From: a virus
Taxonomy: Duplodnaviria; Heunggongvirae; Uroviricota; Caudoviricetes
Reading direction: 5' to 3' (one strand)
IMG/VR virus record: IMGVR_UViG_3300031647_000750
Location: 128,025-192,024 of that record
Length of the DNA: 64,000 nucleotides
Below, piece after piece: positions 6,461-22,134 of this stretch. Within the stretch, counting starts at the first letter, position 1. Every line of letters begins with the position of its first letter. The translations under genes were made by a program, and so were the position numbers. A model generated the notes under the pieces. It saw nothing but the letters and a program-made list of their open reading frames with translations. It ran no database searches and was not told the DNA's origin.

Positions 6461-7204
6461 ATGAACGATGAGCCTACCGCATTTATATTTGATGTAGATG
6501 GCACACTTACTCCCAGTCGTTCTTTAATTGACCCAGTATTCGAAGCATGGTTTGTGGATTTTTGTACTCATAATGATGTATATATTGTCACTGGAAGTGA
6601 TCGTACAAAAACATTAGAGCAAATACACGGTACATTATATGATCTTATAGTTAAAGTATATCAATGTAGTGGTAATAATGTGTGGATCAAAGATGTAGAA
6701 ATCGAATGCAATGAATGGGTACTTGGTGACGAAGAGAGAGAATTCCTAAACGCTAAATTAGAGGAATCTGAATTTAGTATTAAGACAGGAATGCATATTG
6801 AAGATCGTCCAGGAATGGCGAATTTCAGTATAGTGGGTAGAGGTGCAACAGTGGAAGATCGCGCAGCCTATGTAGAATATGAATTTGTACATAAAGAGCG
6901 TAAACTAATTGCTGAAGCGTTCAACTTTAAATTTAAAGAGTCTGGGATAACTGCACATGTTGCAGGTGAGACGGGTCTTGATATACTACCCAATGGGAAA
7001 GACAAAGGTCAGATCATTCATGATTTTGACGAACAAACTATTTATTTCTTTGGTGATAGGATGGAAGAAGGTGGCAATGATGCTCCTCTTAAACAAGCCA
7101 TCATTGGCAGAAGAAACACAAGTGATAAGTGCTTTACAGTAGAGGGATGGGAACATACATGGAATCTACTACAGGAACTATCTAAGCAAGGATTATGTTA
7201 TTAA
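6461..7204 (+). CDS. Phosphomannomutase, eukaryotic-type HAD-IIB family
   Basis: N-terminal FDVDGTLT HAD motif. The C-terminal KDKGQ...TIYFFGDRMEEGGNDAPL matches the eukaryotic PMM signature DGWDK...IYFFGDK..GGNDHEI. Confidence 0.65.
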   Translation: MNDEPTAFIFDVDGTLTPSRSLIDPVFEAWFVDFCTHNDVYIVTGSDRTKTLEQIHGTLYDLIVKVYQCSGNNVWIKDVEIECNEWVLGDEEREFLNAKLEESEFSIKTGMHIEDRPGMANFSIVGRGATVEDRAAYVEYEFVHKERKLIAEAFNFKFKESGITAHVAGETGLDILPNGKDKGQIIHDFDEQTIYFFGDRMEEGGNDAPLKQAIIGRRNTSDKCFTVEGWEHTWNLLQELSKQGLCY

Positions 7205-7263: not shown

Positions 7264-7557
7264 ATGGCAATTGAACAAAACGATAGATCATTTAGTAAGA
7301 TTTTTGATGAGATCGACATACAAACTATACCTCCCAAATATATACAAGCAATCATCCTTACATTAGTAGGTGGTGAGAAGATAGAAATATCAGATGAAAT
7401 GCTAGATTCTATTACATCGGCAGAAGATGTATTCGCAGGAATCGAGCGAGAAGATGTCATGAACGTTGATATTGCTCTTGATTATGAAGCAATCGAATAT
7501 GATGTAAGCACCGATGTGAAGAGCGTGCTAGACGGTCTATTCGGCAATCATGACTGA
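7264..7557 (+). CDS. Hypothetical acidic protein
   Basis: ORF. Confidence 0.4.
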   Translation: MAIEQNDRSFSKIFDEIDIQTIPPKYIQAIILTLVGGEKIEISDEMLDSITSAEDVFAGIEREDVMNVDIALDYEAIEYDVSTDVKSVLDGLFGNHD

Positions 7558-8206
7558 TAGTGCAACCAGAATATGGATGTGCGGTATACCCGGATCTAAA
7601 TGGTCTGGAATAGATATGCATATGCGTCAAGTGTTACCATGTGATCAGACTGATGAATCAGATGAACGCACATGTTATCATAGAGCGTATTCACCAACCG
7701 ATACTAACAACGGACATCGTGGTAGTTATTGGGGACCAGGAATGGGATGTGGTGAAGATTGGATAGACTTCAATTTTATGGATAAATCAAAAATAATCAA
7801 CGACATAGATACAGTATTCACTGGTACTGGTTACAAAATAATAAAAGATCATTTCTTGGCTAGACAATTTAATCTAGATTACGTGTGGAATAATTTTTCT
7901 GGTGATTATATAGTTCTTGTATATAGAGAACCACAGAAATCATTTGCATGGTGGTCAGAAGTTATGGATTTTGGCGAGGGACATTATCCAGATTATGCGC
8001 CTGGATATACTGATTATAATACAATGAGAAAGTTGCTGTGGACTGAATCTGCAAAGATAACAGACTTCGCAGTTCGTAAAGATATGAATTTCTCACTATA
8101 TAACAATCAAGCATTCCAATCAATTGATGGATTTGCTTGGAAAACGGCTAATAAACTTGACATTATGACCAATGACACATATATATCTGTAAAGCGAATA
8201 CCATAA
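7550..8206 (+). CDS. Hypothetical protein. The N-terminal GIPGSKWSG is weakly reminiscent of a sulfotransferase PAPS-binding loop.
   Basis: ORF; the motif resemblance alone is not decisive. Confidence 0.35.
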   Translation: MTDSATRIWMCGIPGSKWSGIDMHMRQVLPCDQTDESDERTCYHRAYSPTDTNNGHRGSYWGPGMGCGEDWIDFNFMDKSKIINDIDTVFTGTGYKIIKDHFLARQFNLDYVWNNFSGDYIVLVYREPQKSFAWWSEVMDFGEGHYPDYAPGYTDYNTMRKLLWTESAKITDFAVRKDMNFSLYNNQAFQSIDGFAWKTANKLDIMTNDTYISVKRIP

Positions 8207-8910
8207 TGTCAAGTCCGTTTAAAACACCTTGGCACTTTGATAAATTTCGCACAGATGAAGAAGGTGAGTATGTTAAGATTGTTGGAATAGTCAATGGTGA
8301 CTGGACAACAGAGATAGATCATGCTCGTTCAAAAGACTTCAATGTTCAAAATTATAATGAACAGCGTTATGAACATGCTGCTAACAAAAAAAGTAAAAAC
8401 CATATAGAAGAAGATAAAGAGAATCCTGATGGTAAACCTGGATCTACTATGTTTCGTAAAATTAATTACGATAAGTTCCCTAGCGAGTTCCCAAAATTAA
8501 ATGCGATCACAGATTTATTACAACTTGATAAAGATGAAAAGTTAACATGTAAGTTCAATGAGCAGTTCCCTAACGATCAACTTATGTGGCATATTGATAA
8601 CTTGCCGGGAAACCCACGTAAAGAGCGTGTGATAGATAATCCCGAATTCAAGCATTCAAACGACAATAAAATACGCTTCTTGATCACATTAGAAGATTGG
8701 GAACCAGGACAAGTCTTTCAGTTTGGTAATAGAGTATACACCCAATGGAAAGCAGGTACTATATTTACATGGGAATGGAGTACATTGCCTCATTTAACAT
8801 GGAATGGTAGTTGGTCAAAGCGTCCTTGTTTACAGATCACAGGTACAGCAACACCATCAACATGGGATATTGTGCGTAACGGTAATGCAGATACCATCTA
8901 TAACATATAA
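8206..8910 (+). CDS. Hypothetical protein
   Basis: ORF translationally coupled to the upstream gene (ATAATG). Confidence 0.4.
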   Translation: MSSPFKTPWHFDKFRTDEEGEYVKIVGIVNGDWTTEIDHARSKDFNVQNYNEQRYEHAANKKSKNHIEEDKENPDGKPGSTMFRKINYDKFPSEFPKLNAITDLLQLDKDEKLTCKFNEQFPNDQLMWHIDNLPGNPRKERVIDNPEFKHSNDNKIRFLITLEDWEPGQVFQFGNRVYTQWKAGTIFTWEWSTLPHLTWNGSWSKRPCLQITGTATPSTWDIVRNGNADTIYNI

Positions 8911-8948
8911 ATAAAAGAGTGTCATAAATCGACACAAAGGAAACTAAA

Positions 8949-10382
8949 ATGACAGAAAAGAAATTACCATCAGATACGTTTTGTATTCTACCTTGGATAC
9001 ATTTGAGTACTCGCCCAGACGGCAGTATGAGAGTATGTTGTACAGCAAATGCAAGTAGTGTTGGTGCAACAAATGATAAAGTTCACGGTGGGCGAGTTGG
9101 CATTGTTAAGACAGATGATGGTAAGCCTGCAAACCTAAACAACAGTGACTTGTCTAGTGCATGGAACAATAGTTACATGCGTGGTGTACGTCAACAAATG
9201 CTTGCAGGAGAAAAGCCTGCTAGTTGTTTGAAATGTTACAAAGAAGAAGATGCAGGACATCGATCTAAGCGACAGTGGGAAACCCAGTACTGGATGCGTG
9301 ATGGAATTGATGTTGATGAACTTGTTAAAGAAACATATGAAGACGGTTCAACTGATTCAAAACTACGATACATTGATATCCGTATGGGTACTAAATGCCA
9401 ACTTGGTTGCGTTATGTGTAGTCCACACGATTCATCAGGATGGGTAAAAGATTGGAATAAGTTGTATCCACAGATTACCAATGAGTCACTAAAAGAAACA
9501 ATGTCTTGGGATGATAAAGGCAAGCAGTTTGGTGCTAATTATAACTGGCATAAAAACAACCCACAGTTTTGGGAACAATTTTATGCTCAAATTCCATTCA
9601 TGCGTCAACTATACTTTGCAGGCGGCGAATCGACGGTTATCGAAGAGCATTATGAAATCCTAGATAAAGTTATTGAAATGGGTTATGCATCTCAGATTGA
9701 GTTGCGTTACAACAGTAATGGCATTGAATTGCCTGATCGTCTACTAGAGCAATGGAAGCATTTCCAAAAGGTACGTTTCCATTATAGTATTGACAGTATT
9801 GGTGAAATGAATGATTATATTCGTTACCCAAGTGAATGGTCACATCAACTTGCAATGTTTGAGCGTCTTGATACACAGACTTCTAACAACGTAGAGATTA
9901 CAATCGCGTGTGCAGTTAACGCACTAAACATTCACTACATTCCAGACTTCCTTAAATGGAAACTGCAATCAGACTTGAAGAAGACAAACATGTGGCCCTT
10001 TGGCGCTGGTGGCATTAACTATCACTTTGTATACTGGCCAGGACATTTGAATGTCAAGGTATTGCCAGATGAGTTCTTAGACAAAACCGAAGCGAAGTAT
10101 GAAGAGTTCATTGCATGGTGGAAAGAGAATTGGGAACTAGGTGTTCCAAGTTGGCACAAGGGTAAAGTAGATTATCAGAAATGGGAAGATGCTGAATATG
10201 GCATCAAGCGTTTACGTGGTATGATTAGTTTTGCTCGTAGTGAAGATTGGAGTCAGCGATTACCAGAGTTTAGAGAATACATTAACAAACTAGACGAGAT
10301 GCGCGGCACCGATTTCAGAAAAACATTTGCAGACATGGCTTACTTATTAGACGAGCCTACAGAGGACAATGATAGTGACTGA
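8949..10382 (+). CDS. Radical SAM enzyme, long form (paralog A), with an N-terminal RxCC motif and a central CxxxCxxC motif
   Basis: KCQLGCVMC is a C-x3-C-x2-C motif; FAGGESTV is a GGE motif; the N-terminal LPWIH..DGSMRVCC is shared with paralog B. Confidence 0.7.
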   Translation: MTEKKLPSDTFCILPWIHLSTRPDGSMRVCCTANASSVGATNDKVHGGRVGIVKTDDGKPANLNNSDLSSAWNNSYMRGVRQQMLAGEKPASCLKCYKEEDAGHRSKRQWETQYWMRDGIDVDELVKETYEDGSTDSKLRYIDIRMGTKCQLGCVMCSPHDSSGWVKDWNKLYPQITNESLKETMSWDDKGKQFGANYNWHKNNPQFWEQFYAQIPFMRQLYFAGGESTVIEEHYEILDKVIEMGYASQIELRYNSNGIELPDRLLEQWKHFQKVRFHYSIDSIGEMNDYIRYPSEWSHQLAMFERLDTQTSNNVEITIACAVNALNIHYIPDFLKWKLQSDLKKTNMWPFGAGGINYHFVYWPGHLNVKVLPDEFLDKTEAKYEEFIAWWKENWELGVPSWHKGKVDYQKWEDAEYGIKRLRGMISFARSEDWSQRLPEFREYINKLDEMRGTDFRKTFADMAYLLDEPTEDNDSD

Positions 10383-10923
10383 TGTAATACCAGTATTAAT
10401 TGCGTTAGAAGTGGAATTGCCCTATGAATTACCGACACCATATGTTAAAATAGTAACAGGTGTCGGTAAGATCAAAGCGACAATGGCAGCAATGGAAGCA
10501 GTATTTAAGTACAATCCTCATACCATTATCAATATGGGTACTGCGGGCAGTTTAGATCCTGATTTAGCACTAGGTGTACATGAAGTTAGTACCGTAGGTC
10601 AACGAGATATGGATGCATCGCCTTTAGGTTGGAAAGTAGGACAGACTCCGTTCACTGGTGAATTATGGATAGATCTAAAACTTAGTGGTGTTTCATTGAC
10701 TAGTGGTGATAACTTTGTCACAAGTCAGCCACCATTGAGTAGTACACTGGTTGATATGGAAGCATATGGTATTGCAATGGTATGCAAAAAGTATAAAGTT
10801 ATCTTTGATTGCTATAAGTACGTATCAGACTTTGCAGATGAAGATTCAACTACAGACTGGGAACAGAATTGCTCCGATGGTGCAAATGAATTCATGAAAA
10901 TATTATCAAATCGTAGCGAGTAA
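10369..10923 (+). CDS. 5'-methylthioadenosine/S-adenosylhomocysteine/5'-deoxyadenosine nucleosidase (Pfs/MtnN, PNP_UDP_1 family)
   Basis: TGVGKIKATMAAMEAV...INMGTAGSL and MEAYGIAMVCKKY align with Pfs GIGKVNAA..INTGSAGGL and EMEAAAIAQV. Confidence 0.6.
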   Translation: MIVTDVIPVLIALEVELPYELPTPYVKIVTGVGKIKATMAAMEAVFKYNPHTIINMGTAGSLDPDLALGVHEVSTVGQRDMDASPLGWKVGQTPFTGELWIDLKLSGVSLTSGDNFVTSQPPLSSTLVDMEAYGIAMVCKKYKVIFDCYKYVSDFADEDSTTDWEQNCSDGANEFMKILSNRSE

Positions 10924-10926
10924 ATA

Positions 10927-12492
10927 ATGTTAGATGTTGTCATGTTGGCGTATGGTGAACCAAACGCTGATCAAAATTTCAAAAGAATACAGAAATTAGC
11001 ACCCAATGCGAAGAGGGTAGATAATGTCGTCGGGATTTTAGAGGCACATCAAGCAGCAGCAAAATTGGCAACTACTGATAATTTTTATGTAGTAGATGCT
11101 GACGCGGTGTTATCTGAGCATTTTAATTTCTCATTCACACCTGATATCATTAAAGAATCGTATCCGGGTGTGAATGAATCAAGTTGTGTATTCGTATGGC
11201 AGAGTGTTAATGCAGTCAATGGATTGATTTATGGTTATGGTGGAGTAAAGTTATTCCCTAGACATAAGTTATTGAATGCGAAATCATTTCAGATAGATAT
11301 GACCACAACAATAGATGCACCATTAGTAGTGAAGCAACAAATATCTAATATAACCGAATTCAATACAGATGAATTCAGTACATGGCGCAGTGCATTCCGT
11401 GAGTGTACAAAACTAGCATCTAACCCCACTCCAGATATGGATGATCGATACAGATTAGATGTATGGTGTACTCGTGGAGATAGCAGTGCCCATGGAAAAT
11501 ATGCTATAATGGGTGCTAGACAAGGACGAGAGTTCGGTGCATTTTACAAAAATGATAAGAAAACTCTAGATAAAATAAACGATTTCACTTGGTTAACCAC
11601 TACATTTGACAAGTCATCAGTGCATACAATAGATCAGCATCACCCAATTCATTTATCATGGTTTCATGGACTAGAAGAATATTTTACATTGTCATCCGTA
11701 GAATCATACTATGCAGTATTTATTAAACTAAAGAATGCACTGGTATACGGTGATAACTGGGGCATTCGCGATCTTATTTTAGAAGAAGTAAATATAGGTA
11801 AGAATGAAGACACTGAACTTTATGTTAATGTAATACTTCAATCATTATTAATAGATGATTATGTAATACCAGATCATCAAGTATTGGAATATATTAATCG
11901 CAATATTAATGATAATTTTATATATGGATTGATGAAATTGTCTGACCCATCGCATGGTAATATTGATCTAGTAGATTTTATCACACGTGATTCGATGATA
12001 GGCAAGTCTTGGATGATTGAAGAATTAAGTAAGACAACGTTGGAACCATCTGATGTTGTAATATTGGGTGGTAACATATGCACCCATTCATCTATGTTAA
12101 TTAATAATTATGAAACAATTGAATCTATACTTAGTGTGGATATAGATCATAAGACAACAGAGTATGCTCGTTTGTTAAATCATATAGCAGAATCTGACGA
12201 ATTATTCAGTGCACAAACCAATGATGTATCTGATATAATATGGGATGAATCATCTCTGCCTGATTTATTGATAAACACTAGTTGCGCACATATGGATGAT
12301 ACATGGTTTGACAATATACCAGATACTGATGATACTTTGATAGTAATACAGACAAATGATTTTTCAGATAATATGAACTGCGTTAAAGATCTGTCTACCG
12401 CCATGACTAAATACCAAATGAAAGAAGTATTATTTAGTGGTGAACAAAGCACACAGTTATATAATAGATTTATGATTATAGGAATCAAGTAA
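10927..12492 (+). CDS. Two-domain protein: N-terminal GT-A (family 2-like) glycosyltransferase-like domain fused to a conserved C-terminal Rossmann-like (methyltransferase-like) domain
   Basis: N-terminal VVMLAYGEP...VVDADA (DxD). The C-terminal 150 aa are paralogous to the C-terminus of ORF 33512 (VILGGNICTHS / NTSCAHMDD / RFMIIGIK). Confidence 0.5.
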   Translation: MLDVVMLAYGEPNADQNFKRIQKLAPNAKRVDNVVGILEAHQAAAKLATTDNFYVVDADAVLSEHFNFSFTPDIIKESYPGVNESSCVFVWQSVNAVNGLIYGYGGVKLFPRHKLLNAKSFQIDMTTTIDAPLVVKQQISNITEFNTDEFSTWRSAFRECTKLASNPTPDMDDRYRLDVWCTRGDSSAHGKYAIMGARQGREFGAFYKNDKKTLDKINDFTWLTTTFDKSSVHTIDQHHPIHLSWFHGLEEYFTLSSVESYYAVFIKLKNALVYGDNWGIRDLILEEVNIGKNEDTELYVNVILQSLLIDDYVIPDHQVLEYINRNINDNFIYGLMKLSDPSHGNIDLVDFITRDSMIGKSWMIEELSKTTLEPSDVVILGGNICTHSSMLINNYETIESILSVDIDHKTTEYARLLNHIAESDELFSAQTNDVSDIIWDESSLPDLLINTSCAHMDDTWFDNIPDTDDTLIVIQTNDFSDNMNCVKDLSTAMTKYQMKEVLFSGEQSTQLYNRFMIIGIK

Positions 12493-13805
12493 TGAACGAT
12501 GACGATATAAAGAACAATGACACAGATAATGGGTTTTGCGCACTGCCATTTGTACAATATAGTACATTCAATGGGGGTCGTTATCGATTATGTTGTATGG
12601 CAAAGGAACCTAGTGAACTTATTAATCAAGAAGAACTAGGCATAGATGGAACATGGAATCATGATTACATTCGTAGTGTTCGTGAGCGTATGGCTACGGG
12701 CGAATGGCTACCAGAGTGTATAGAATGTAAAAGATTAGAACGTAACGATATTATAAGTTCTCGTCAATGGGAAAACTATTCATGGAAAGATCAGGTTCCA
12801 GATATTGTAGCATTGGCAAGTGCAAATGATTGGAATATAGAACAGCCTCTACAATTTGATTTTAGATTAGGTAATTTGTGTAATCTACAATGTCAGATGT
12901 GTAACAAAGAAGCATCGCATTTAGTAAGTGTTGAGCGTGCCAATATGATTGCAACAGATTTGGGTCCCAAATCTCCTAACTTAGATAGATATGATTGGGA
13001 CAATAATATTGCTAATAAAAAGAAAGCGATAATTCAGCCTGGCATCGATTGGGATAGTTTTGATAAGATGCTGCCATATGCACAGACGATTAAAATGATT
13101 GGCGGCGAACCAACTGTTGTATCTGATATGTTCAAGTTGCTAGACAGAGCAACTGAATCCGGATACGCAAAAAATATTACATTATCGTTCTACACGAACA
13201 TCACCAATATGCAAGATAGATGGTTGAAGCAATTTAGTCAGTTTAAGCAAGTTGTTGTAAATTGCTCATTAGAGGGCATGGGTGATATGAATGATTATTT
13301 ACGTCCGCCATCGCAGTGGGATTCAGTATGGGAAAATTTTGATAAGTTAGTAAAGTATTCAAATACATCAGAAGGAAAGAACATTCGTGTACGTGTCACT
13401 ACGGTGAATCAAGTAACAAACGCGTTGCATTTGGTTCCATTCTGGAGATTTATGCACGATTATCAACAGACTAATGACCGTACCATCGGCATGAGTACGA
13501 ATCAATTGGTAGAACCTGAATATTACTCAATGGCGCATAGTCCCCAATGGTTGCGTGATGAACAGAAATCACAGATACTAGAATTTTTAGAAGAGATAAA
13601 AGATAGTCCTCATTATGAAGATTATTCACGTCCGTTAATGGAAGCATTGCATTTTGGCGAAGATCCAGAAACCAAGTATGATCGTGGATTTATGAGGGAT
13701 TATGTTCAAGTAACAGAAAACTATGATAAGCATCGCGGACATGATGTGATGTCAGTAGCACCTGAATTTAGCCGAATTAAATCAGATTTAGAACTTGACA
13801 AGTAA
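12492..13805 (+). CDS. Radical SAM enzyme, long form (paralog B)
   Basis: LGNLCNLQCQMC is a C-x3-C-x2-C motif; MIGGEPTV is present; the N-terminal LPFVQY..GGRYRLCC is shared with paralog A. Confidence 0.7.
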   Translation: MNDDDIKNNDTDNGFCALPFVQYSTFNGGRYRLCCMAKEPSELINQEELGIDGTWNHDYIRSVRERMATGEWLPECIECKRLERNDIISSRQWENYSWKDQVPDIVALASANDWNIEQPLQFDFRLGNLCNLQCQMCNKEASHLVSVERANMIATDLGPKSPNLDRYDWDNNIANKKKAIIQPGIDWDSFDKMLPYAQTIKMIGGEPTVVSDMFKLLDRATESGYAKNITLSFYTNITNMQDRWLKQFSQFKQVVVNCSLEGMGDMNDYLRPPSQWDSVWENFDKLVKYSNTSEGKNIRVRVTTVNQVTNALHLVPFWRFMHDYQQTNDRTIGMSTNQLVEPEYYSMAHSPQWLRDEQKSQILEFLEEIKDSPHYEDYSRPLMEALHFGEDPETKYDRGFMRDYVQVTENYDKHRGHDVMSVAPEFSRIKSDLELDK

Positions 13806-13813
13806 GGAAATAA

Positions 13814-14482
13814 ATGACATCAACTAATATGGAATATTTAACTGAGATAGATTTTGCATTAACCACATATTGTCAAGCACGATGTAGAAGTTGTGCTAGA
13901 ACGAATCAACATACTGGTGAAAAAGAAGATTGGTTAGAACTCAAGCATATGAATCTAGATGTGTTTAAACGAACTCTTGCAGCATCTACTAATATAAAGT
14001 ATAATCTAATTGAGTTTTGTGGCGAGTTGGGCGATCCCATGATGCATCCACAAGTTGACAAATTTATAGAAACTGCATTAGAATATGCACCATCAATATT
14101 AATATCAACAAATGGTGCGCTTAGAAATGCAAACTGGTATAAGACGATAGCAGAAAAATACACAGACGATGTCTTTATAAATTGGGCAATTGATGGAGCA
14201 ACACATGACACCAATTGGAAGTATAGAGAAGGTGTTGATTTTAATAAAGCTTTTGAAAATATGAAAACTCACACTCAATCAGGTGGGGATGGTGAATGGC
14301 GATATTTAATATTTGAGTGGAATTGGCATGAAATACCGCTAGCACGTCAAATGGCAAAAGAGATTGGAATTAAAATTATTTTTTGCTTCAATAATAGAGA
14401 TTTTGGATTAATAACACCAGATTCTAGATTGGATGCAGAAAAATTATTAATAGGAGTGAGTCCAGATGACATCAAAGGGTAA
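13814..14482 (+). CDS. Radical SAM enzyme, short form (paralog C), N-terminal catalytic part only
   Basis: TTYCQARCRSC is a C-x3-C-x2-C motif and EFCGELGDPMMHP is present. The product ends where paralogs D and E continue into a (W/Y)PCC domain. Confidence 0.6.
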   Translation: MTSTNMEYLTEIDFALTTYCQARCRSCARTNQHTGEKEDWLELKHMNLDVFKRTLAASTNIKYNLIEFCGELGDPMMHPQVDKFIETALEYAPSILISTNGALRNANWYKTIAEKYTDDVFINWAIDGATHDTNWKYREGVDFNKAFENMKTHTQSGGDGEWRYLIFEWNWHEIPLARQMAKEIGIKIIFCFNNRDFGLITPDSRLDAEKLLIGVSPDDIKG

Positions 14483-14876
14483 ATATAATATTGAATGTCA
14501 ATCATTCGAAGCTCTAAATGAATTTACTAACCTCCCTGTAAGAAAATGGGAAGTAACACCAGAAGGAAGAGTGTGGCCATGTTGTTATTTTGCAAATGCA
14601 TGGGATAGACGACATATGATGAGGGCAGATGAATTGGGTCCCGATGAAGATTCTAGTGAAGAAGATTTTCATAATGTAAATGGTGAATCAGCAGAATTAT
14701 TGAATGATGCTAGAATGATGACTATAATAAATGAAGATCCTGATTGGAATAGTTTAGAACATCACTCTATAGAAGAAATCATAGCGCACGAAGTATTCCA
14801 CAGTTACATCTGGACTGAAGGATGGAATAGCGATAATCCTGCGATATTGTGTGTTAATAATTGTAATAAGTGTTGA
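14466..14876 (+). CDS. C-terminal WPCC-motif domain homologous to the C-termini of radical SAM paralogs D and E, encoded as a separate ORF overlapping 13814..14482 by 17 nt
   Basis: TPEGRVWPCCYFANAWD aligns with DGKVYPCCMFYA (22211) and WGTVWPCCHISNHA (37417). Confidence 0.5.
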   Translation: MTSKGKYNIECQSFEALNEFTNLPVRKWEVTPEGRVWPCCYFANAWDRRHMMRADELGPDEDSSEEDFHNVNGESAELLNDARMMTIINEDPDWNSLEHHSIEEIIAHEVFHSYIWTEGWNSDNPAILCVNNCNKC

Positions 14877-14936
14877 CAAGTAAGCCGTATTGTTGTATAA
14901 TAGTTATATAAGTTAATAAAGCGCAAGGAAATGAAT
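14873..14936 (+). promoter_or_regulatory. Conserved promoter plus leader cassette (TTGACAAGTAAG-N-TATAAT-AGTTATATAAGTTAAT-AAAG-AAGGAA)
   Basis: One of at least 6 near-identical cassettes. Others are at 32614, 33280, 51083, 51671 and 59293. Confidence 0.6.
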
Positions 14937-15077
14937 ATGTTAAATTTTTTAGAGACTACTGTTTTGCCAATGACACGTGTTATTGAAGCGAGCGGCTATT
15001 TTGAAATATTGTTATTATGTTTATTGCCAATCATGCTGATTGGTAGTGCGGTATTATTTAAGAAAGGTGAATTATAA
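14937..15077 (+). CDS. Small hydrophobic protein (46 aa)
   Basis: ATG follows the AAGGAA RBS of the conserved leader; one predicted TM segment. Confidence 0.4.
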   Translation: MLNFLETTVLPMTRVIEASGYFEILLLCLLPIMLIGSAVLFKKGEL

Positions 15078-16238: not shown

Positions 16239-16312
16239 GCTCGGTTAGCTCAAAGGTAGAGCCATCGCTCGATAAGCGATAGACGAAGGATCGTTACCTT
16301 CACTGAGTACCA
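16239..16312 (+). tRNA. tRNA, anticodon GAT (Ile) with atypical C33 and atypical T-loop ATCGTTA
   Basis: Hand-folded cloverleaf: acceptor GCTCGGT/ACTGAGT with G-U pairs, D-stem GCTC/GAGC, anticodon stem ATCGC/GCGAT, encoded CCA. A -10 TATAAT lies immediately upstream. Confidence 0.45.
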
Positions 16313-16359
16313 TTTTAAAATTGGAGATTCACTGCCATAAGTGTGAACTATAAAATTAC

Positions 16360-16436
16360 GGATTGTTAGCATAGTGGCTTAATGCAGCACCTTCATACGG
16401 TGAAGATCAATGGTTCAAATCCATTACAATCCACCA
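16360..16436 (+). tRNA. tRNA-Met (CAT)
   Basis: Acceptor GGATTGT/ACAATCC, D-stem GCAT/ATGC, anticodon loop TTCATAC, T-arm AATGG-TTCAAAT-CCATT, CCA encoded. Confidence 0.7.
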
Positions 16437-16444
16437 CAAGTTTT

Positions 16445-16520
16445 ACAGGGTATAGCTGAGTTTGGTTTAGCACGGGCCTTGGATGCCTGAGACGAGGGTT
16501 CAAGTCCTTCTTCCCTGACC
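16445..16520 (+). tRNA. tRNA-Pro (TGG)
   Basis: Anticodon stem CGGGC/GCCTG with loop CTTGGAT; T-arm GAGGG-TTCAAGT-CCTTC; acceptor with one mismatch; CCA encoded; D-arm irregular. Confidence 0.5.
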
Positions 16521-16574
16521 ATTAGAGATAGTGTATATCTCGTGTCTTTTATTAGATATAAAAATACAATTTAA

Positions 16575-16648
16575 TACTCTTGCCAGTGGAACTGGCAGTT
16601 GGGTTTCGACCCCGACTTGCGAATGTTCGATTCATTCCAGGAGTGCCA
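16575..16648 (+). tRNA. tRNA, probable anticodon TCG (Arg)
   Basis: Acceptor ACTCTTG/CAGGAGT; T-arm GAATG-TTCGATT-CATTC; anticodon loop TTTCGAC; D region atypical. Confidence 0.4.
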
Positions 16649-16794
16649 AATTTACTATGCTGGCTGCCGTCTACGTTTCCGGAAACTGACGTTAAATATT
16701 GAGGTTCAACTCCTCGGATACATTAAGGAAGGCTTGGTGTATCGCGTTACAGGCAACGTAAGGGTTCGACTCCCAAATAGTAAACCGCTTTGAT

Positions 16795-16872
16795 GGTGAT
16801 CGTAGCATAACTGGCAAATGCCCAAGGTTGTGAACCTTGTAGATCCGGGATCATACCCCGGCGATCACACCA
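16795..16872 (+). tRNA. tRNA-His (GTG) with extra G at -1
   Basis: G-1 plus acceptor GTGATCG/CGATCAC; D-stem GCAT/ATGC; anticodon stem CAAGG/CCTTG with loop TTGTGAA; T-stem CCGGG/CCCGG with atypical loop ATCATAC; CCA encoded. Confidence 0.65.
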
Positions 16873-16882
16873 CTTATTTTAT

Positions 16883-16968
16883 GGAAGATGATCTAGTCTG
16901 GGACTAGGATGACTTGCTAAGTCAATCGGCTCGAAAGGGTTTGGGATCGTAACCTACTTCTTCCGCCA
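16883..16968 (+). tRNA. Class II tRNA, probable Ser (GCT)
   Basis: Acceptor GGAAGAT/TTCTTCC; D-stem CTAG/CTAG; anticodon loop TTGCTAA; 86-nt length with a long variable region; CCA encoded. Confidence 0.45.
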
Positions 16969-16974
16969 CTTTTA

Positions 16975-17051
16975 GCGCGGTTGCCAGAGTAGCCAACGGA
17001 GCGGCTTGCAAACCCGTACAACCATCGGTGCAAATCCGATACCGCGCTCCA
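16975..17051 (+). tRNA. tRNA (possibly Cys, GCA); anticodon arm not confidently folded
   Basis: Perfect acceptor GCGCGGT/ACCGCGC; T-arm ATCGG-TGCAAAT-CCGAT; CCA encoded. Confidence 0.45.
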
Positions 17052-17099
17052 ATTTTAAGTTCCGTTCGTCTATCGGTTAGGACATACGGGAAGAATTAC

Positions 17100-17176
17100 A
17101 TCCCCATAGATTACGTTGGTTAAATCACTAGACTTTCACTCTAGCGAACCGGGATCGTCGCCCGGTGGGGATACCA
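17100..17176 (+). tRNA. tRNA-Glu (TTC)
   Basis: Perfect acceptor ATCCCCA/TGGGGAT; D-stem GATT/AATC; anticodon stem CTAGA/TCTAG with loop CTTTCAC; T-stem CCGGG/CCCGG with atypical loop ATCGTCG; CCA encoded. Confidence 0.7.
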
Positions 17177-17181
17177 TTTTT

Positions 17182-17280
17182 GTCTTATAGTTTAATATGG
17201 CATTTGGGTATGACGATACTCAAGAATAGAATCTTGCAATCAGCGAGAGATACAGGTATTGCATAATCCTGTTAAGACAA
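17182..17280 (+). ncRNA. tRNA-like element (~99 nt) with perfect 7-bp terminal pairing TGTCTTA/TAAGACA and stem ACAGG/CCTGT; interior not canonical
   Basis: Terminal helices seen; no CCA. Confidence 0.2.
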
Positions 17281-17292
17281 ATTATTTTTAAT

Positions 17293-17367
17293 GCATCGGT
17301 AGTGTCAATGGAAACACGCGAGATTCCAAACTTCGTATTCTAGGTTCAAGTCCTAGTCGGTGTGCCA
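17293..17367 (+). tRNA. tRNA-Trp (CCA)
   Basis: T-arm CTAGG-TTCAAGT-CCTAG; anticodon loop TTCCAAA; D-stem GTGT/ACAC; acceptor pairs partly through G-U; CCA encoded. Confidence 0.55.
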
Positions 17368-17479
17368 CATTAAGGTAGTTAAGCAGTTGAGAACCATATC
17401 GTGAAACCTACGGGGGAGTTGGTATTGGAACAAATAGTTCGCTGCTCAAGAGGGTGTTGACCTCTACTGCCACCCTTTT

Positions 17480-17578
17480 TATCTTGTTGCTTAATTAAAG
17501 CAGTGGAATCCCTCATACATCGTCAATGCTATGAGAATGATGTTTCCATGCATGTAGGTGCAAATCCTACCAAGATAA
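17480..17578 (+). ncRNA. tRNA-like element (~99 nt) with acceptor-like TATCTTG/CAAGATA and canonical T-arm GTAGG-TGCAAAT-CCTAC but a long unresolved interior (possible intron or long variable arm)
   Basis: Terminal helix and T-arm seen; interior not folded. Confidence 0.25.
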
Positions 17579-17589
17579 ATTATTTTTAA

Positions 17590-17675
17590 GCAGGATACGA
17601 CTCATGGTGAGACAGCGGATTGTAAATCCGTAGCGTGTAATGCGCAAGTAGGTTCAATTCCTTCATCCTGCACCA
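17590..17675 (+). tRNA. tRNA-Tyr (GTA), class II
   Basis: Perfect acceptor GCAGGAT/ATCCTGC; anticodon stem GCGGA/TCCGT with loop TTGTAAA; variable stem-loop; CCA encoded. Confidence 0.6.
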
Positions 17676-17682
17676 CTTTTAA

Positions 17683-17760
17683 GCCGCAGTGACCCAAATA
17701 GGTAGAGGTGCTGGTTTTAGAAACCAGATGTTGTAGGTTCGATCCCTACTTGCGGTACCA
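17683..17760 (+). tRNA. tRNA with anticodon TAG (would read CUA, Leu) but short (class I-like) variable region
   Basis: Anticodon stem CTGGT/ACCAG with loop TTTAGAA; T-arm GTAGG-TTCGATC-CCTAC; acceptor GCCGCAG/TTGCGGT with terminal G-U pairs; CCA encoded. Confidence 0.45.
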
Positions 17761-17795
17761 ACATAAATACAACCATATATAGGAGAAACCATATA

Positions 17796-18119
17796 ATGGC
17801 AATTACATTATCTAAAGAAGCATCAGAGCGCATATCAGATTACATGATCAACAGAGGACCTACGTACGGTGTACGTGTAGGTGTAAGAACAACAGGTTGT
17901 TCTGGTCTTGCATACATAGTAGAGTTTGTCGATAATATTGACGAGAATGATACAGTCTTTGTATCAAATGAAATAAGTATTGTAGTAGATCCTAAAGGTT
18001 TAACATACCTTGACGGTACTGAGTTGGATTATGGACGTGATGGACTCAACGAAGGATTCAGATTTAATAATCCAAACGCAAAAGACGAATGCGGTTGTGG
18101 CGAAAGTTTCACTGTATAA
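17796..18119 (+). CDS. A-type Fe-S cluster carrier (IscA/ErpA/HesB family)
   Basis: 107 aa with the conserved Cys triad (C..GCSG ... C-G-C-G C-terminal motif ECGCGESF). Confidence 0.75.
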   Translation: MAITLSKEASERISDYMINRGPTYGVRVGVRTTGCSGLAYIVEFVDNIDENDTVFVSNEISIVVDPKGLTYLDGTELDYGRDGLNEGFRFNNPNAKDECGCGESFTV

Positions 18120-18137
18120 TATTTTATTAAATAAGTG

Positions 18138-18166
18138 TTGACAAGAGAAGTATAATGCGTTACAAT
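18138..18166 (+). promoter_or_regulatory. Promoter ATAAGTGTTGACAAG-17-TACAAT
   Basis: Third copy of the extended -35 family. Confidence 0.5.
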
Positions 18167-18277
18167 AGCACAACGTTTTGAGAAAGACATAAAGTTTTTT
18201 GATAAATAAATAAGAAGTTTATGCTGACGTATTTCAAGTCACTAATTTAGAAATAGTTTAAAATAGTTTAAAATAGT

Positions 18278-18310
18278 AGTTGACAATAGTTAATAAGTTT
18301 GATATAATAG
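18278..18310 (+). promoter_or_regulatory. Promoter TAGTTGACAATAG-N-GATATAAT driving small-RNA candidate 1
   Basis: Consensus hexamers; similar to the promoter at 18465. Confidence 0.45.
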
Positions 18311-18314
18311 TAGA

Positions 18315-18450
18315 ACAAGTTGAGAGATCAACACGCTCTTTAAAAATAGTTTGTTTTAATATGTATTATTGTTGATGAAAGTAGGGCTTGATGTTGGAAG
18401 TAGAACCATTAAGGTGTCTGACGATAGTTAACAATAATATATTTTAAAAT
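18315..18450 (+). ncRNA. Candidate small RNA 1 (diverged member of a repeat family). It ends in ...GACGATAGTTAAC followed by A/T-rich sequence.
   Basis: No ORF; follows a promoter; shares 3' motif CGATAGTTAA and an internal GGAAGTAG..AAGG core with units at 18556 and 18715. Confidence 0.3.
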
Positions 18451-18464
18451 GAATTAAAATAGTT

Positions 18465-18498
18465 ATTGACATTGTTATGAAACTTTGTTATACTATTA
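18465..18498 (+). promoter_or_regulatory. Promoter TTATTGACATTG-N-TTATACT driving small-RNA candidates 2a and 2b
   Basis: Consensus-like -35 and -10. Confidence 0.45.
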
Positions 18499-18555
18499 AA
18501 GTGTTCTTTTGTATACACATTAGGTAGATACTGATTTTAGTAGGTATGGTGATTC

Positions 18556-18646
18556 GTGCTGAACGTTGAAGGGAATCGCTAAATGACAAGGGACTTGCTG
18601 TGTGGGATTAATCATCCCTGTCGTAGACAAGCGGTTGTTAAATAAT
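18556..18646 (+). ncRNA. Candidate structured small RNA 2a (core GTGCTGAACGTTGAAGGGAATCGCTAAATGACAAGGG...GGGATTAATCATCCC hairpin)
   Basis: Non-coding; near-duplicate of 18715-18812 with compensatory-looking changes. Confidence 0.35.
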
Positions 18647-18714
18647 GTGTATGCAAAAGTGTATTTTAATATATGCTATTGGGTAGAGCCAGATCGTAGT
18701 AAGCATAAGGGTGC

Positions 18715-18812
18715 GTGCTGAAATTTGAAGGGAATCGCTGAACGACAATAGGTTTAATGTATACAGACTAATCCCTGTATATTGGAACCAACGATAGTTA
18801 AACGATAGTATA
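18715..18812 (+). ncRNA. Candidate structured small RNA 2b (core GTGCTGAAATTTGAAGGGAATCGCTGAACGACAATAGG...)
   Basis: Paralog of 18556-18646; ends CGATAGTTAAACGATAG plus A/T-rich sequence. Confidence 0.35.
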
Positions 18813-18842
18813 TTTTAAAGTTTATTTTAAATAAAGTTTAAT

Positions 18843-18918
18843 TCCTGAATAGCTCAGTTGGTAGAGCAGTAGACTGTTAATCTATTTGTCGTTGGTTCGA
18901 GCCCAACTTCAGGAGCCA
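18843..18918 (+). tRNA. tRNA-Asn (GTT)
   Basis: Canonical cloverleaf: acceptor TCCTGAA/TTCAGGA, D-stem GCTC/GAGC, anticodon loop CTGTTAA, T-arm GTTGG-TTCGAGC-CCAAC, CCA. Confidence 0.85.
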
Positions 18919-19018
18919 TTTTCATAGTTAGTTTATTCCTTCTTACAGGATATCCTGAGAAGATACGAAGAAAACTGATAGCATCACATCTGAAACAATG
19001 ACGATGTGGTGCGGTTGC

Positions 19019-19092
19019 GCCCGATTAGTTAAGTGGTATAACAATTGCCTTGTAAGCATTAGTTGGTGGTTCGATTCCATCATTGGGCACCA
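19019..19092 (+). tRNA. tRNA-Thr (TGT)
   Basis: Acceptor GCCCGAT/ATTGGGC; D-stem GTTA/TAAC; anticodon loop CTTGTAA; T-loop TTCGATT; CCA. Confidence 0.7.
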
Positions 19093-19235
19093 TTTTTTAA
19101 AGTAGTATTAAGTAGTTACCCTAGCGGCTCATAAGAGAGAGTCGGTTCATTGCATATAGTTACAGTTATGTGTAGTCAGCGAAATGTGCATCTGTAAGTG
19201 CATGTAGACTCGGCTAACTTCTTAATATTATTTTT

Positions 19236-19311
19236 GCTGACGTAGCTCACTCGGGAGAGCGCGACCCTGTCAAGGTCGAGGTAGTGGGATCGAAACCCAT
19301 CGTTGGCGCCA
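19236..19311 (+). tRNA. tRNA-Asp (GTC)
   Basis: D-stem GCTC/GAGC; anticodon stem CGACC/GGTCG with loop CTGTCAA; T-stem GTGGG/CCCAT with loop ATCGAAA; CCA. Confidence 0.8.
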
Positions 19312-19357
19312 CATTTAAGATCAAATTTCTTGACCAGAAGTTTGAAACAACGTTTTA

Positions 19358-19448
19358 TAGAGAGTTGGCAGAGTGGTCGAATGCACTGGTCTTGAAAACC
19401 AGCAAGGGTTCATAGCCCTTCGAGAGTTCGAACCTCTCACTCTCTGCC
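19358..19448 (+). tRNA. tRNA-Ser (TGA), class II
   Basis: Perfect acceptor AGAGAGT/ACTCTCT; 3-bp D-stem; anticodon stem CTGGT/ACCAG with loop CTTGAAA; variable hairpin AAGGG/CCCTT; T-arm GAGAG-TTCGAAC-CTCTC; CCA. Confidence 0.85.
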
Positions 19449-19516
19449 ATTTTAGATAGTGCTAAATAGATAGTTCGTCAGATGATGTAACTATTTTATA
19501 GGAATAAACCATGTAT

Positions 19517-19591
19517 AATATAATTTGTCCCATTAGCATAATGGATAGTGCAGTGGATTTCTACTCCATAGATCAGGGTTCGACTCCTTGA
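19517..19591 (+). tRNA. tRNA-Arg (TCT)
   Basis: Perfect acceptor GTCCCAT/ATGGGAC; anticodon loop TTTCTAC; T-arm CAGGG-TTCGACT-CCTTG; CCA; -10 TATAAT upstream. Confidence 0.8.
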
Positions 19592-19711
19592 TGGGACACC
19601 AATTTTAAAGAGCGTACAGTATCATCGCTTGTCAAGTAGATACTCAGGTAACATCAGGCATAGCCCCTCATGATGTTATTAGGTGAGGGGGTGAGACAAG
19701 CACATTTTTAT

Positions 19712-19781
19712 ATCATCATTTGCCAATTGGTAAGGTTAGGCGAAGTAGTCGTTACTGGTTCGATTCCAGTTGGTGATACCA
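19712..19781 (+). ncRNA. tRNA-like element (70 nt) with a good acceptor and T-arm (ACTGG-TTCGATT-CCAGT) and CCA but a compressed, unresolved D/anticodon region
   Basis: Partial fold only. Confidence 0.3.
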
Positions 19782-19789
19782 ATTTTAAT

Positions 19790-19861
19790 GCGGGATGCTA
19801 AGGTATGCACTCCGGGCTCATAACCCGCGAGGTTGAGTTTCGATTACTCTTTCCGCTACCA
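19790..19861 (+). ncRNA. tRNA-like element with a CAT anticodon loop (CTCATAA) but an imperfect acceptor and T-stem
   Basis: Anticodon hairpin CCGGG/CCCGC is recognisable; other arms weak. Confidence 0.3.
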
Positions 19862-19866
19862 CATTA

Positions 19867-19944
19867 GGGCCTATAGCTTAGTTGGTTTAAAGCAGACGAC
19901 TCATAATCGTAAGATCCTTGGTTCAAGTCCAAGTAGGCCCACCA
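19867..19944 (+). tRNA. tRNA with CAT anticodon (elongator Met or Ile2-lysidine type)
   Basis: Perfect acceptor GGGCCTA/TAGGCCC; D-stem GCTT/AAGC; anticodon loop CTCATAA; T-arm CTTGG-TTCAAGT-CCAAG; CCA. Confidence 0.8.
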
Positions 19945-20081
19945 CTATAATTTATTTTTGTATAAGATTTGTCTTATACATTTACAGAAATCGCTTCTGT
20001 TATCGTGACATACAACGACAACGATAGCGTTACACTCGTAACAAATACATGTTAATTATGCGAGTTGACGATAACAGAGGC

Positions 20082-20156
20082 GGCGCTATTCGCGAGTATC
20101 GTATAATGGTTATTACGGGAGGTTTCCAACCTTTTGATGTCAGTTCGATTCTGACT
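20082..20156 (+). tRNA. tRNA-Gly (TCC)
   Basis: Perfect acceptor GCGAGTA/TACTCGC; anticodon loop TTTCCAA; T-arm GTCAG-TTCGATT-CTGAC; CCA. Confidence 0.85.
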
Positions 20157-20178
20157 ACTCGCTCCAATATGTAAGAAG

Positions 20179-20264
20179 TAAAGAACATGCCTTGGTGGTG
20201 GAATTAGGTATACACATCAGATTTAAAATCTGACGACTTCGGTCATGCGGGTTCAAGTCCCGCT
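20179..20264 (+). tRNA. tRNA-Leu (TAA), class II
   Basis: Anticodon stem TCAGA/TCTGA with loop TTTAAAA; variable hairpin GAC-TTCG-GTC; T-arm GCGGG-TTCAAGT-CCCGC; CCA. Confidence 0.85.
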
Positions 20265-20296
20265 CAAGGCACCAAAATTAAAATAGAAGATGTAAT

Positions 20297-21028
20297 ATGA
20301 ATAGTTTGTTTGAATACACAGAAGCAGTAGAAGAGTGCAAAGGTTCGTTAGAAGGTGATGGTGATAATAAGTTATTTACCGAAGCAGAGCGTGTTCTATC
20401 TACTGAAATAAACAACGAAGAAAAGATATTAAAGCATCCGATATTACATGAAGCGTTTGATCGCATCGTAGAGCAACATGTACCAAATCAATCAACTGCA
20501 TTTTTATCATTATGCACTGCTACTCGTCCTTATAACAAGAGCAAGAAGTGGAAAGGATTCATCAACAAGTTTGGTGGTAAGGTAGATATGATAGTTGTAT
20601 CTAATGGTGGTATGATGCCACAACAGTTTTGGAAAAGTTGGCCCTATTTGAATTACGATGGGGGTGATCATTATGATGTTAAAATGTATCAAGATATTAT
20701 GCATGAACGATTATTGAAGTTTTTTAGGAAGCACAATTACAGTAATGTTATTGCAAACTTTAGACCTAATTTAATCAATCATCAACCAGCACATGATGCG
20801 CTTTCTATTCTGAAAGAAGAAGGTAGCATTGGTGATTATATTGTAATGCCTAATCAGGAGTTGTATGATAAGGCACAGTCATTAGGTTGGCGACCACCAC
20901 AAGGTCAAGGTGATATGTTCCCTGATTTAACCAATACGATACTGAGTGCATTAACTGCTCAAGTGGAAGAATTCGGGTATGATGAAGATTTATTTACTGT
21001 TCATGAAAAATTAAAGTACAATAAGTAG
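20297..21028 (+). CDS. Hypothetical protein
   Basis: ORF; start immediately downstream of the tRNA cluster. Confidence 0.45.
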   Translation: MNSLFEYTEAVEECKGSLEGDGDNKLFTEAERVLSTEINNEEKILKHPILHEAFDRIVEQHVPNQSTAFLSLCTATRPYNKSKKWKGFINKFGGKVDMIVVSNGGMMPQQFWKSWPYLNYDGGDHYDVKMYQDIMHERLLKFFRKHNYSNVIANFRPNLINHQPAHDALSILKEEGSIGDYIVMPNQELYDKAQSLGWRPPQGQGDMFPDLTNTILSALTAQVEEFGYDEDLFTVHEKLKYNK

Positions 21029-21073
21029 GTTATTTTTATAGTATAAATAATACTATAGACAGGGAGAAAGATA

Positions 21074-21748: not shown

Positions 21749-21822
21749 CAGAACACGTTACATAGTGTATAATAATTTATTAGATAAATAAAGTAGTAAG
21801 TATGAAGTGGTTACATAATCGT

Positions 21823-21898
21823 GGGGATATAGCTCAGTTGGGAGAGCGACTGCCTTGCACGCAGTAGGTCGTAGGTTCGATCCCTATTATCTCCACCA
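21823..21898 (+). tRNA. tRNA-Ala (TGC), copy 1
   Basis: GGGGATATAGCTCAGTTGGGAGAGC...CTTGCAC...GGTTCGATCC...TATCTCCACCA canonical. Confidence 0.9.
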
Positions 21899-21947
21899 TT
21901 ATGTGACTATTAGTCTAATAAATAAAGTAGCAAGTATGAAGTACAAT

Positions 21948-22023
21948 GGGGATATAGCTCAGTTGGGAGAGCGACTGCCTTGCACGCAGTAGGTCGTAGG
22001 TTCGATCCCTATTATCTCCACCA
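21948..22023 (+). tRNA. tRNA-Ala (TGC), copy 2, identical to copy 1 and part of a ~120-bp segmental duplication
   Basis: Identical sequence; the upstream flank AAATAAAGTAG(T/C)AAGTATGAAGT is also duplicated. Confidence 0.9.
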
Positions 22024-22058
22024 TTTTAAAATTAAAGAGATATCAAATTTCTTTAAAA

Positions 22059-22134
<76 letters not shown>

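Follow-up and report, generated by a model that had tools for sequence, protein, structure and literature searches.

One of the closest known counterparts of the gene reported here is the Escherichia coli nucleosidase MtnN/Pfs, for which the relief of product inhibition of radical SAM (rSAM; SAM, S-adenosylmethionine) enzymes is an established role. Choi-Rhee and Cronan are said to have found in 2005 that E. coli Pfs hydrolyses 5′-deoxyadenosine (5′-dA) and that biotin synthase requires it in vivo, and the inhibition of rSAM enzymes by 5′-dA was reportedly described by Challand et al. in 2009. Both papers are cited in PMC10986504, and the inhibition by 5′-dA and its removal are also summarised in the abstract of PMC8102628. 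Here we analyzed a stretch of 64,000 nucleotides (nt) of viral DNA (Caudoviricetes; positions 128,025 to 192,024 of the IMG/VR record IMGVR_UViG_3300031647_000750), referred to below as the window, which carries at 10369-10923 a gene for a short nucleosidase placed within an operon of rSAM genes. With a probability of roughly 0.6, we consider that this phage nucleosidase most likely clears the inhibitory 5′-dA from the phage's own rSAM enzymes and that the adenine is recycled. The role proposed is the one established for Pfs, and the locus builds sensibly on established biochemistry without amounting to a new type of system.

The phage protein has in common with E. coli MtnN/Pfs (PDB 1jys, 3o4v) the alpha/beta PNP_UDP_1 fold (template modelling (TM) score of about 0.75 on the query), the catalytic residues and the hydrophobic 5′-pocket, while it differs in length (184 against 232 amino acids (aa)), in sequence (about 28% identity) and in being encoded by a phage in an rSAM operon. 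The best match by fold (E 6e-13, TM 0.74) is the 5′-methylthioadenosine/S-adenosylhomocysteine nucleosidase (MTAN) of Brucella melitensis (4pr3), whose sequence is also the only one among the PDB matches to be aligned in one stretch (residues 11-167); it is a chromosomal protein and about 25% identical. Among the curated profiles the best one is NF004168 (PRK05634 "nucleosidase", a 185-aa model), which agrees in length and is aligned end to end with 96.2 bits, whereas its cutoff lies at 129 bits. HpnG and MqnB/futalosine hydrolase are also enzymes of the PNP_UDP_1 superfamily which are encoded with an rSAM enzyme; they cleave an adenosylated intermediate, whereas the partners in the phage are not HpnH- or MqnE-like and the phage family is otherwise linked to adenine phosphoribosyltransferase (Apt).

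Viral copies of such genes have been catalogued before. Phage-encoded mtnN/pfs was listed as an auxiliary metabolic gene by Kieft et al. (bioRxiv 10.1101/2021.01.05.425418), and a Lake Baikal phage group, VP_139, with radical SAM proteins, MetK, a nucleosidase for 5′-methylthioadenosine (MTA) and S-adenosylhomocysteine (SAH) and methyltransferases was described by Coutinho et al. 2020 (PMC7678222). The gene is framed in these reports as a modulator of organosulfur metabolism or of the SAM cycle, and the disposal of 5′-dA in an rSAM operon, the short subfamily and the link to Apt are not part of them. T4-like marine viral genomes with A-type Fe-S carriers (ATC), a gammaproteobacterial-type IscU, ClpP and up to 12 radical SAM genes were reported by Nishimura et al. 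2017 (PMC5332604); they are the same kind of phage as the one in the window, and the nucleosidase, Apt and the ribose-phosphate pyrophosphokinase Prs are unmentioned there. Our search of the literature for a phage nucleosidase tied to the removal of 5′-dA returned general reports of viral mtnN only. New in the present analysis are the assignment to a short uncurated subfamily, its operon and fusion with Apt, the repeated placement, in viruses only, inside operons of twitch-domain rSAM genes, and the co-occurrence with a set of Fe-S, ferredoxin, Apt and Prs genes. If the proposed role is true, the locus would furnish genetic evidence from nature that rSAM chemistry in vivo is limited by inhibition through its by-product, and so strongly that viruses bring along a dedicated countermeasure, and it would complete a phage-borne rSAM support system of Fe-S assembly, ferredoxin, by-product hydrolysis and adenine recycling. 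The 184-aa protein is also a candidate minimal helper for rSAM reactions in vitro or in heterologous hosts.

The original prediction had placed a Pfs-type nucleosidase at this position, and it was recovered with exactly these limits, with a match of the 184-aa open reading frame (ORF) to Pfam PF01048 (PNP_UDP_1) of 48.8 bits (E 8e-13; gathering cutoff 25.1). The cutoffs of the MTAN equivalog models were all missed (NF004079, 69.3 bits against 169; TIGR01704, 51.0 against 73.8; NF005522, 50.2 against 161; TIGR01705, 42.1 against 152), and those of futalosine hydrolase MqnB (TIGR03664, 38.1 bits against 124.7) and HpnG (TIGR03468, 29.6 bits against 187.1) were not reached; the rSAM enzymes on both sides are N_Twi_rSAM proteins, not HpnH. 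The models of the purine nucleoside phosphorylase DeoD (17.4 bits, cutoff 230) and of uridine phosphorylase (15.1 bits, cutoff 280) scored far below those of PRK05634 and MTAN, and a phosphorylase, which would have spoken against the original prediction, is hence not the best profile. All PDB sequence matches with E < 1e-3 were MTANs or aminofutalosine nucleosidases, the two phosphorylases appearing only at E > 0.03, and an AlphaFold2 (AF2) monomer model (33 homologs; mean predicted local distance difference test (pLDDT) 87, predicted TM score (pTM) 0.86) gave a Foldseek top-50 in the PDB made up entirely of MTANs or futalosine hydrolases (E about 1e-12, TM on the query 0.73-0.80). Ten marine relatives, cellular and viral, likewise stayed under the NF004168 cutoff (79-109 bits). 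When 1.84 billion cluster representatives were searched with a profile, 239 of them matched at E <= 1e-30; their median length is 189 aa, and the short form is therefore a discrete family. The nucleosidase is MTAN-like by fold and active site and lies outside every curated equivalog; its short subfamily is a sister family to PRK05634 which has no curated model. We know of no biochemical characterisation of this subfamily.

The active site was compared with E. coli MtnN, whose sequence is identical to PDB 3o4v/1jys and which was used as the alignment reference. In this enzyme Glu12 activates the water, Glu174 holds the ribose hydroxyl and Asp197 protonates N7. The equivalents of the catalytic and binding residues in the phage protein are E16 (for E12), M130-E131 (M173-E174), D154 (D197), F116 (F151), T58 (S76) and K150 (R193). 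The pocket of the 5′-substituent is formed by L13 (for M9), V32 (I50), A83 (V102), L86 (F105′), W88 (Y107′), P94 (P113′) and W164 (F207), and the replacements in it are all hydrophobic and conservative. Seven of these residues, E16, M130, E131, D154, F116, K150 and W164, did not vary in any of the homologs compared, of which 81 were viral and about 79 cellular. The ratio of nonsynonymous to synonymous substitution rates (dN/dS) among the viral orthologs was 0.15-0.24, so the gene is under purifying selection, and the identical protein is encoded by IMG/VR viral contigs and by metagenome contigs, at least 23 in number and up to 192 kb long. No family for it was found in PHROGs, and BFVD contained distant phosphorylases of giant viruses but no MTAN-like model from a phage.

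The nucleosidase is situated between radical SAM genes, as had been claimed: the twitch-domain enzyme rSAM477 is upstream, and a second twitch-domain enzyme, rSAM437, and a third rSAM core are downstream (Table 1). The stop codon TGA of rSAM477 (10380-10382) and the nucleosidase ATG give an overlap of 14 nt; a GAGGA at 10362-10366 is located 8 nt ahead of an in-frame GTG at 10375, and this GTG may be the true start. Three nt past the nucleosidase stop begins the ORF of a 521-aa protein, for which a glycosyltransferase-like/Rossmann character had been proposed and which proved to have both domains. The homologs that span its first ~44% carry PF13641/PF00535, its AF2 model has a pLDDT of 82.8, and the Foldseek matches of its C-terminal domain (E about 1e-6) are many methyltransferases together with the MTA-releasing nicotianamine synthase and CntL; a weak match to Spermine_synth was also seen. 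By its modelled fold this protein would yield SAH or MTA.

The linkage was then followed across viruses. The order rSAM477, nucleosidase, 521-aa protein, rSAM437 is kept in the close relatives of the window (75-98% identity; group 1). A second phage group (group 2), in which the nucleosidase is 44-48% identical, retains all three enzymes and is without the 521-aa gene, so that rSAM437 stands directly after the nucleosidase. Between these two groups the identity is 86-90% for rSAM477, 70-72% for rSAM437 and 33-74% for the other syntenic genes. An rSAM477 ortholog (>= 82% identity) was present on 21 viral contigs, and on 20 of these the nucleosidase is found 0-1.5 kb downstream, the exception being truncated (20/20 informative contigs); in two cases (L046, L070; L numbers denote the contigs compared) the gap after rSAM477 is filled by a further twitch-like rSAM gene which ends 1-2 nt before the nucleosidase.

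An arrangement of the same kind is present around other rSAM genes. Two loci, L079 and L081, have six tandem N_Twi_rSAM paralogs (198-415 bits) which are about 29% identical to rSAM477, and the nucleosidase is inserted between the fourth and the fifth of them with a 4-nt overlap with the fourth. The single metabolite common to the six rSAM paralogs of L081 is 5′-dA. Independent acquisition is claimed for L081/L079 only, on account of this low identity of the flanking rSAM enzymes, and not within groups 1 and 2. In the wider survey, a CxxxCxxC ORF of >=180 aa was present near the nucleosidase in 17/80 viral loci against 0/79 cellular loci, with flanks of 6 kb being taken for the viral and 4 kb for the cellular loci. 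The further claim of the original prediction, that flux through the phage's own rSAM enzymes is protected, is supported by this genomic context, the activity on 5′-dA being predicted from the sequence.

Xenologous replacement of the nucleosidase between groups 1 and 2 was considered on the basis of its 44-48% identity against 86-90% for rSAM477. It was dropped because the 7264 homolog (33-39%) and the 5765 homolog (48-55%) are as diverged and the neighbour-joining tree was without support values.

The features of the window are listed in Table 1 together with the tandem array of L081. At least five CxxxCxxC rSAM enzymes are encoded in the 64 kb (starting at 8949, 12492, 13814, 22211 and 37417), and the phage has a near-complete iron-sulfur cluster (ISC) set, with IscS, IscU, IscA and an ErpA-like carrier, plus FdxA, which might serve to reduce the rSAM clusters.

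Table 1. Coordinates of the nucleosidase, its operon neighbours and other features of the window (positions of the 64,000-nt stretch, except for the last row)
Feature	Position	Strand	Evidence or remark
PMM-like HAD-IIB phosphatase/mutase	6461-7204		Upstream of rSAM477
Two conserved proteins	7550-8206, 8206-8910		Upstream of rSAM477
rSAM477, twitch-domain radical SAM enzyme, 477 aa	8949-10382	+	CQLGCVMC at residue 150; NF033640 N_Twi_rSAM 422 bits, cutoff 170
MTAN-family nucleosidase, short (184 aa)	10369-10923	+	ATG-to-TAA ORF, PF01048
521-aa two-domain protein	10927-12492	+	N-terminal GT2-like domain, helical linker, C-terminal class-I SAM-dependent transferase (Rossmann) fold
rSAM437, second twitch-domain radical SAM enzyme	12492-13805	+	CNLQCQMC at residue 130; N_Twi_rSAM 291 bits
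Third radical SAM core (CQARCRSC) and SPASM-like ORF	13814-14482 and 14466-14876	+	Pfam/NCBIfam scan, motif
18-tRNA array	16239-22134		Including two each of tRNA-Met, tRNA-Ala-TGC, tRNA-Thr-TGT and tRNA-Leu
IscA Fe-S carrier	17796-18119	+	Within tRNA array; TIGR02011 155 bits, cutoff 150.6
DUF5591 protein	20297-21028		
Further radical SAM enzyme (CNAYCPVC)	22211-23236	+	PF04055 39 bits
ClpX (with zinc finger) and ClpP	29750-30979 and 44617-45297		
Further radical SAM/SPASM enzyme (CNAKCGGC)	37417-38475	+	PF04055 35 bits, SPASM 22 bits
QueD/PTPS-like protein	38957-39403		58 bits
FdxA-type 4Fe-4S ferredoxin	39660-40025	+	Directly upstream of Apt; NF045490 151 bits, cutoff 135; Pfam Fer4/DUF3470
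Apt, adenine phosphoribosyltransferase	40025-40546	+	NF002636 162 bits, cutoff 125
ErpA-like A-type Fe-S carrier	40582-40983	+	Directly downstream of Apt; PF01521 53.6 bits; TIGR00049 68 bits, cutoff 58.8
SbmA/BacA-like inner-membrane transporter	49950-51017		PF05992 270 bits
PRPP (phosphoribosyl pyrophosphate) synthetase (ribose-phosphate pyrophosphokinase, Prs)	53805-54776	+	Pribosyltran_N 175 bits; 332 bits to PDB 7xmu
IscS cysteine desulfurase	61655-62914	+	655 bits to E. coli IscS 3lvj/1p3w
IscU scaffold	62960-63343	+	217 bits to 2l4x
Six-rSAM tandem array with nucleosidase	L081 734-8914		IMGVR_UViG_3300024264_002621; also L079

In the mechanism which we propose, a minimal MTAN-type N-ribosyl hydrolase would cleave adenine off the adenosyl by-products of SAM-consuming enzymes. 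The chief substrate would be the 5′-dA released by the flanking twitch-domain rSAM enzymes, and MTA or SAH from the adjoining SAM-dependent transferase domain would probably be further substrates. Removal of the nucleoside would avert product inhibition of the many phage rSAM enzymes during infection, and the freed adenine could be converted to adenosine monophosphate (AMP) by the phage Apt with PRPP supplied by the phage Prs. The nucleosidase would then be one part of a support kit for phage rSAM enzymes, in which clusters may be provided by IscS, IscU, IscA and the ErpA-like protein, electrons by FdxA, and disposal and salvage by the nucleosidase with Apt and Prs. The sequence and structure comparisons show directly the family, the fold, the intact active site, the selection, the position in the operon, the recurrence of the linkage and the presence of the salvage and Fe-S genes; which substrates are used, that inhibition is relieved and that the enzyme works together with Apt and Prs is what we infer. 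The salvage side is an addition to the original prediction and is drawn from the presence of Apt and Prs in the window and from the Apt-nucleosidase operons and fusion seen elsewhere.

Outside this phage lineage the short family was found in at least 562 species-representative genomes, including SAR86, SAR116, SAR202, Rhodobacteraceae, Porticoccaceae and Pelagibacteraceae. For a survey of its neighbours, the genes up to three places away from the nucleosidase in either direction were clustered for 80 viral and 80 cellular loci. The neighbour seen most often was an Apt of about 175 aa (NF002636 175-198 bits, cutoff 125) which lies directly upstream and overlaps the nucleosidase start, in 20/80 cellular and 20/80 viral loci. 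The protein P0336 (680 aa) is a fusion of Apt, the nucleosidase and a further C-terminal domain. The cellular homolog P0053 is encoded between an Apt-like gene and a fusion of AdoMet decarboxylase and spermidine synthase, a source of MTA, and in 7 viral loci the methyltransferase Dam, a source of SAH, is directly upstream of the nucleosidase. An overlapping Apt-nucleosidase pair beside ribonucleotide reductase is also carried by the Kyanoviridae phage C48C1 (OQ984149.1, CDS0108/CDS0109; L001 7460-8519), where both genes are annotated as hypothetical. These contexts fit the release of adenine from SAM-derived nucleosides for salvage. Two further short-nucleosidase fusion proteins were recorded, namely P0356 (359 aa, with a C-terminal extension) and P0405 (522 aa). 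Two matches named "Acinetobacter phage MD-2021a" were dropped as context, since the records look like a bacterial chromosome; in the record L002 (CAKLQH020000009.1) ileS, ribF, lspA, the ssu operon and argA surround pfs_2.

Several observations weigh against the clearing of 5′-dA as the main role. Among viral contigs with distant rSAM477 homologs (42-59% identity), none of 14 has a nucleosidase within 5 kb, and the rSAM chemistry is thus not strictly dependent on a phage copy of the gene; an MTAN or MTAP could also be present in the host already. No rSAM gene is near the nucleosidase for about 60 of the 80 viral homologs. The linkage counts are inflated by shared descent, the 20/21 contigs coming from related phages with inherited synteny, and the independent rSAM-linked lineages number about 3-4 (groups 1 and 2 together, L079/L081, L044/L057 and L028-L030). 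Some 45 residues of canonical MTANs are missing from the protein, which shows three deletions when aligned with the E. coli enzyme and is without the beta2-beta3 hairpin and two helices (alpha3/alpha4). It has the substitutions R193 to K, S76 to T and F207 to W and falls short of all NCBIfam equivalog cutoffs. Its activity on 5′-dA, MTA or SAH is a prediction from homology.

In a rival reading purine salvage would come first, with nucleosidase, Apt and Prs harvesting adenine from any 5′-substituted adenosine for AMP and dATP (deoxyadenosine triphosphate) in phage replication and the position among rSAM genes being incidental. The Apt pairing in a quarter of the viral and of the cellular loci, the P0336 fusion, the pair of C48C1 beside ribonucleotide reductase, the presence of Apt and Prs in the window and the majority of viral homologs that stand away from rSAM genes speak for it. 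We regard it as unlikely all the same, since in this lineage Apt is 30 kb off while the nucleosidase is translationally coupled to rSAM in every informative contig, and in L081 unrelated twitch rSAM paralogs have come to enclose the gene in the same way, a repetition specific to viruses which salvage leaves unexplained. This reading and 5′-dA clearance do not exclude each other either, since the disposal of by-products has salvage as its later half. Alternatively SAH or MTA rather than 5′-dA could be the physiological substrate, the enzyme serving the adjoining transferase domain (methyl or aminocarboxypropyl transfer) and other phage methyltransferases; the class-I SAM-dependent fold of the 521-aa neighbour, with MTA-releasing enzymes among its matches, and the Dam loci agree with this, and MTA is suggested by the spermidine synthase encoded next to P0053. 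Against it, group 2 keeps the rSAM-nucleosidase-rSAM arrangement without the 521-aa gene and only rSAM genes surround the nucleosidase in L081, so that we hold it quite improbable; it is a question of emphasis, as canonical MTANs accept all three substrates.

Nucleosidases of the PNP_UDP_1 superfamily partner rSAM adenosyltransferases in the hopanoid and futalosine pathways, and the phage gene could by analogy encode a pathway-specific step, in which a twitch rSAM enzyme adds the 5′-deoxyadenosyl radical (as HpnH or MqnE would) and the nucleosidase strips the adenine (as HpnG or MqnB/MTAN would), leaving a C5′-linked ribosyl product. The nucleosidase would then be an obligate biosynthetic step: rSAM477 would adenosylate a sugar, nucleotide or lipid, and the C-ribosylated product would be elaborated by the rest of the cluster (the second rSAM, the glycosyltransferase/SAM-transferase protein and the PMM-like enzyme), for example for modification of phage DNA or of the cell surface. 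The tight embedding with a start/stop overlap with rSAM477, the weak futalosine hydrolase and HpnG matches and the MTANs of Helicobacter and Campylobacter, which by their PDB molecule names double as aminofutalosine nucleosidases, are consistent with such a step. The family is, on the other hand, of housekeeping type, paired or fused with Apt and present in hundreds of marine bacteria without a nearby rSAM gene. One nucleosidase serves all six paralogs in L081, and the 14 contigs with rSAM477 homologs do without it. No specific similarity of the flanking rSAM enzymes to HpnH or MqnE was found in the profile scan, and the MqnB and HpnG scores are far under their cutoffs; both the adenosylation-and-stripping scheme and its obligate, product-building form are for these reasons very improbable in our estimate. 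Hardly any credence is given to a manipulation of the host, in which the phage Pfs would shift the SAH/MTA pools of the host or feed LuxS/autoinducer-2 (AI-2) quorum sensing. A depletion of host MTA or SAH was raised in the original prediction, and surveys of organosulfur auxiliary metabolic genes have treated viral mtnN together with luxS, but no LuxS was seen among the annotated ORFs of the window (the annotation covered part of the ORFs) and the virus-only placement inside rSAM operons is unexplained by it. Among the same annotated part of the ORFs there was also no mqn (menaquinone) gene. The clearing of 5′-dA with recycling of adenine thus stays the reading we prefer.

The sequence is viral in view of the near-identical IMG/VR contigs, the 18 tRNAs and the phage genes, among which a gp44-type clamp loader and a dCMP (deoxycytidine monophosphate) deaminase are also encoded. 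The high similarity of IscS and IscU to gammaproteobacterial proteins hints at a gammaproteobacterial host. A megablast search of 8000-15000 against the GenBank phages and tblastn searches of a 726-aa ORF and of rSAM477 against them gave no match, and there is hence no isolate of the lineage to lean on. The homologs of rSAM477 number more than 2700 and are metagenomic, and it has no PDB sequence relative; PDB sequence searches with both twitch rSAM enzymes returned nothing meaningful. Of the genes upstream of rSAM477, the two conserved proteins had no Pfam, NCBIfam or PHROG match; their synteny with the rSAM pair is kept in phage group 2, and so they probably belong to the same pathway. Downstream of rSAM437, the third rSAM core and its SPASM-like ORF overlap by 17 nt in different frames, and the same split is present in L015-L018 and L022. 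As it recurs in several independent contigs it is not an assembly error; a split gene could account for it, as could a programmed frameshift.

Some minor observations were also made. In another viral group (L028-L030; IMG/VR contigs of up to 338 kb) a radical SAM protein of 637-660 aa with the motif CPYMCTFC is encoded 1-3.5 kb from the nucleosidase. The SbmA/BacA-like inner-membrane transporter of the window is an unusual cargo for a phage. The QueD/PTPS-like protein and the protein with DUF5591, a domain which we take to be one of archaeosine/TGT-type enzymes, are possible hints of 7-deazaguanine metabolism.

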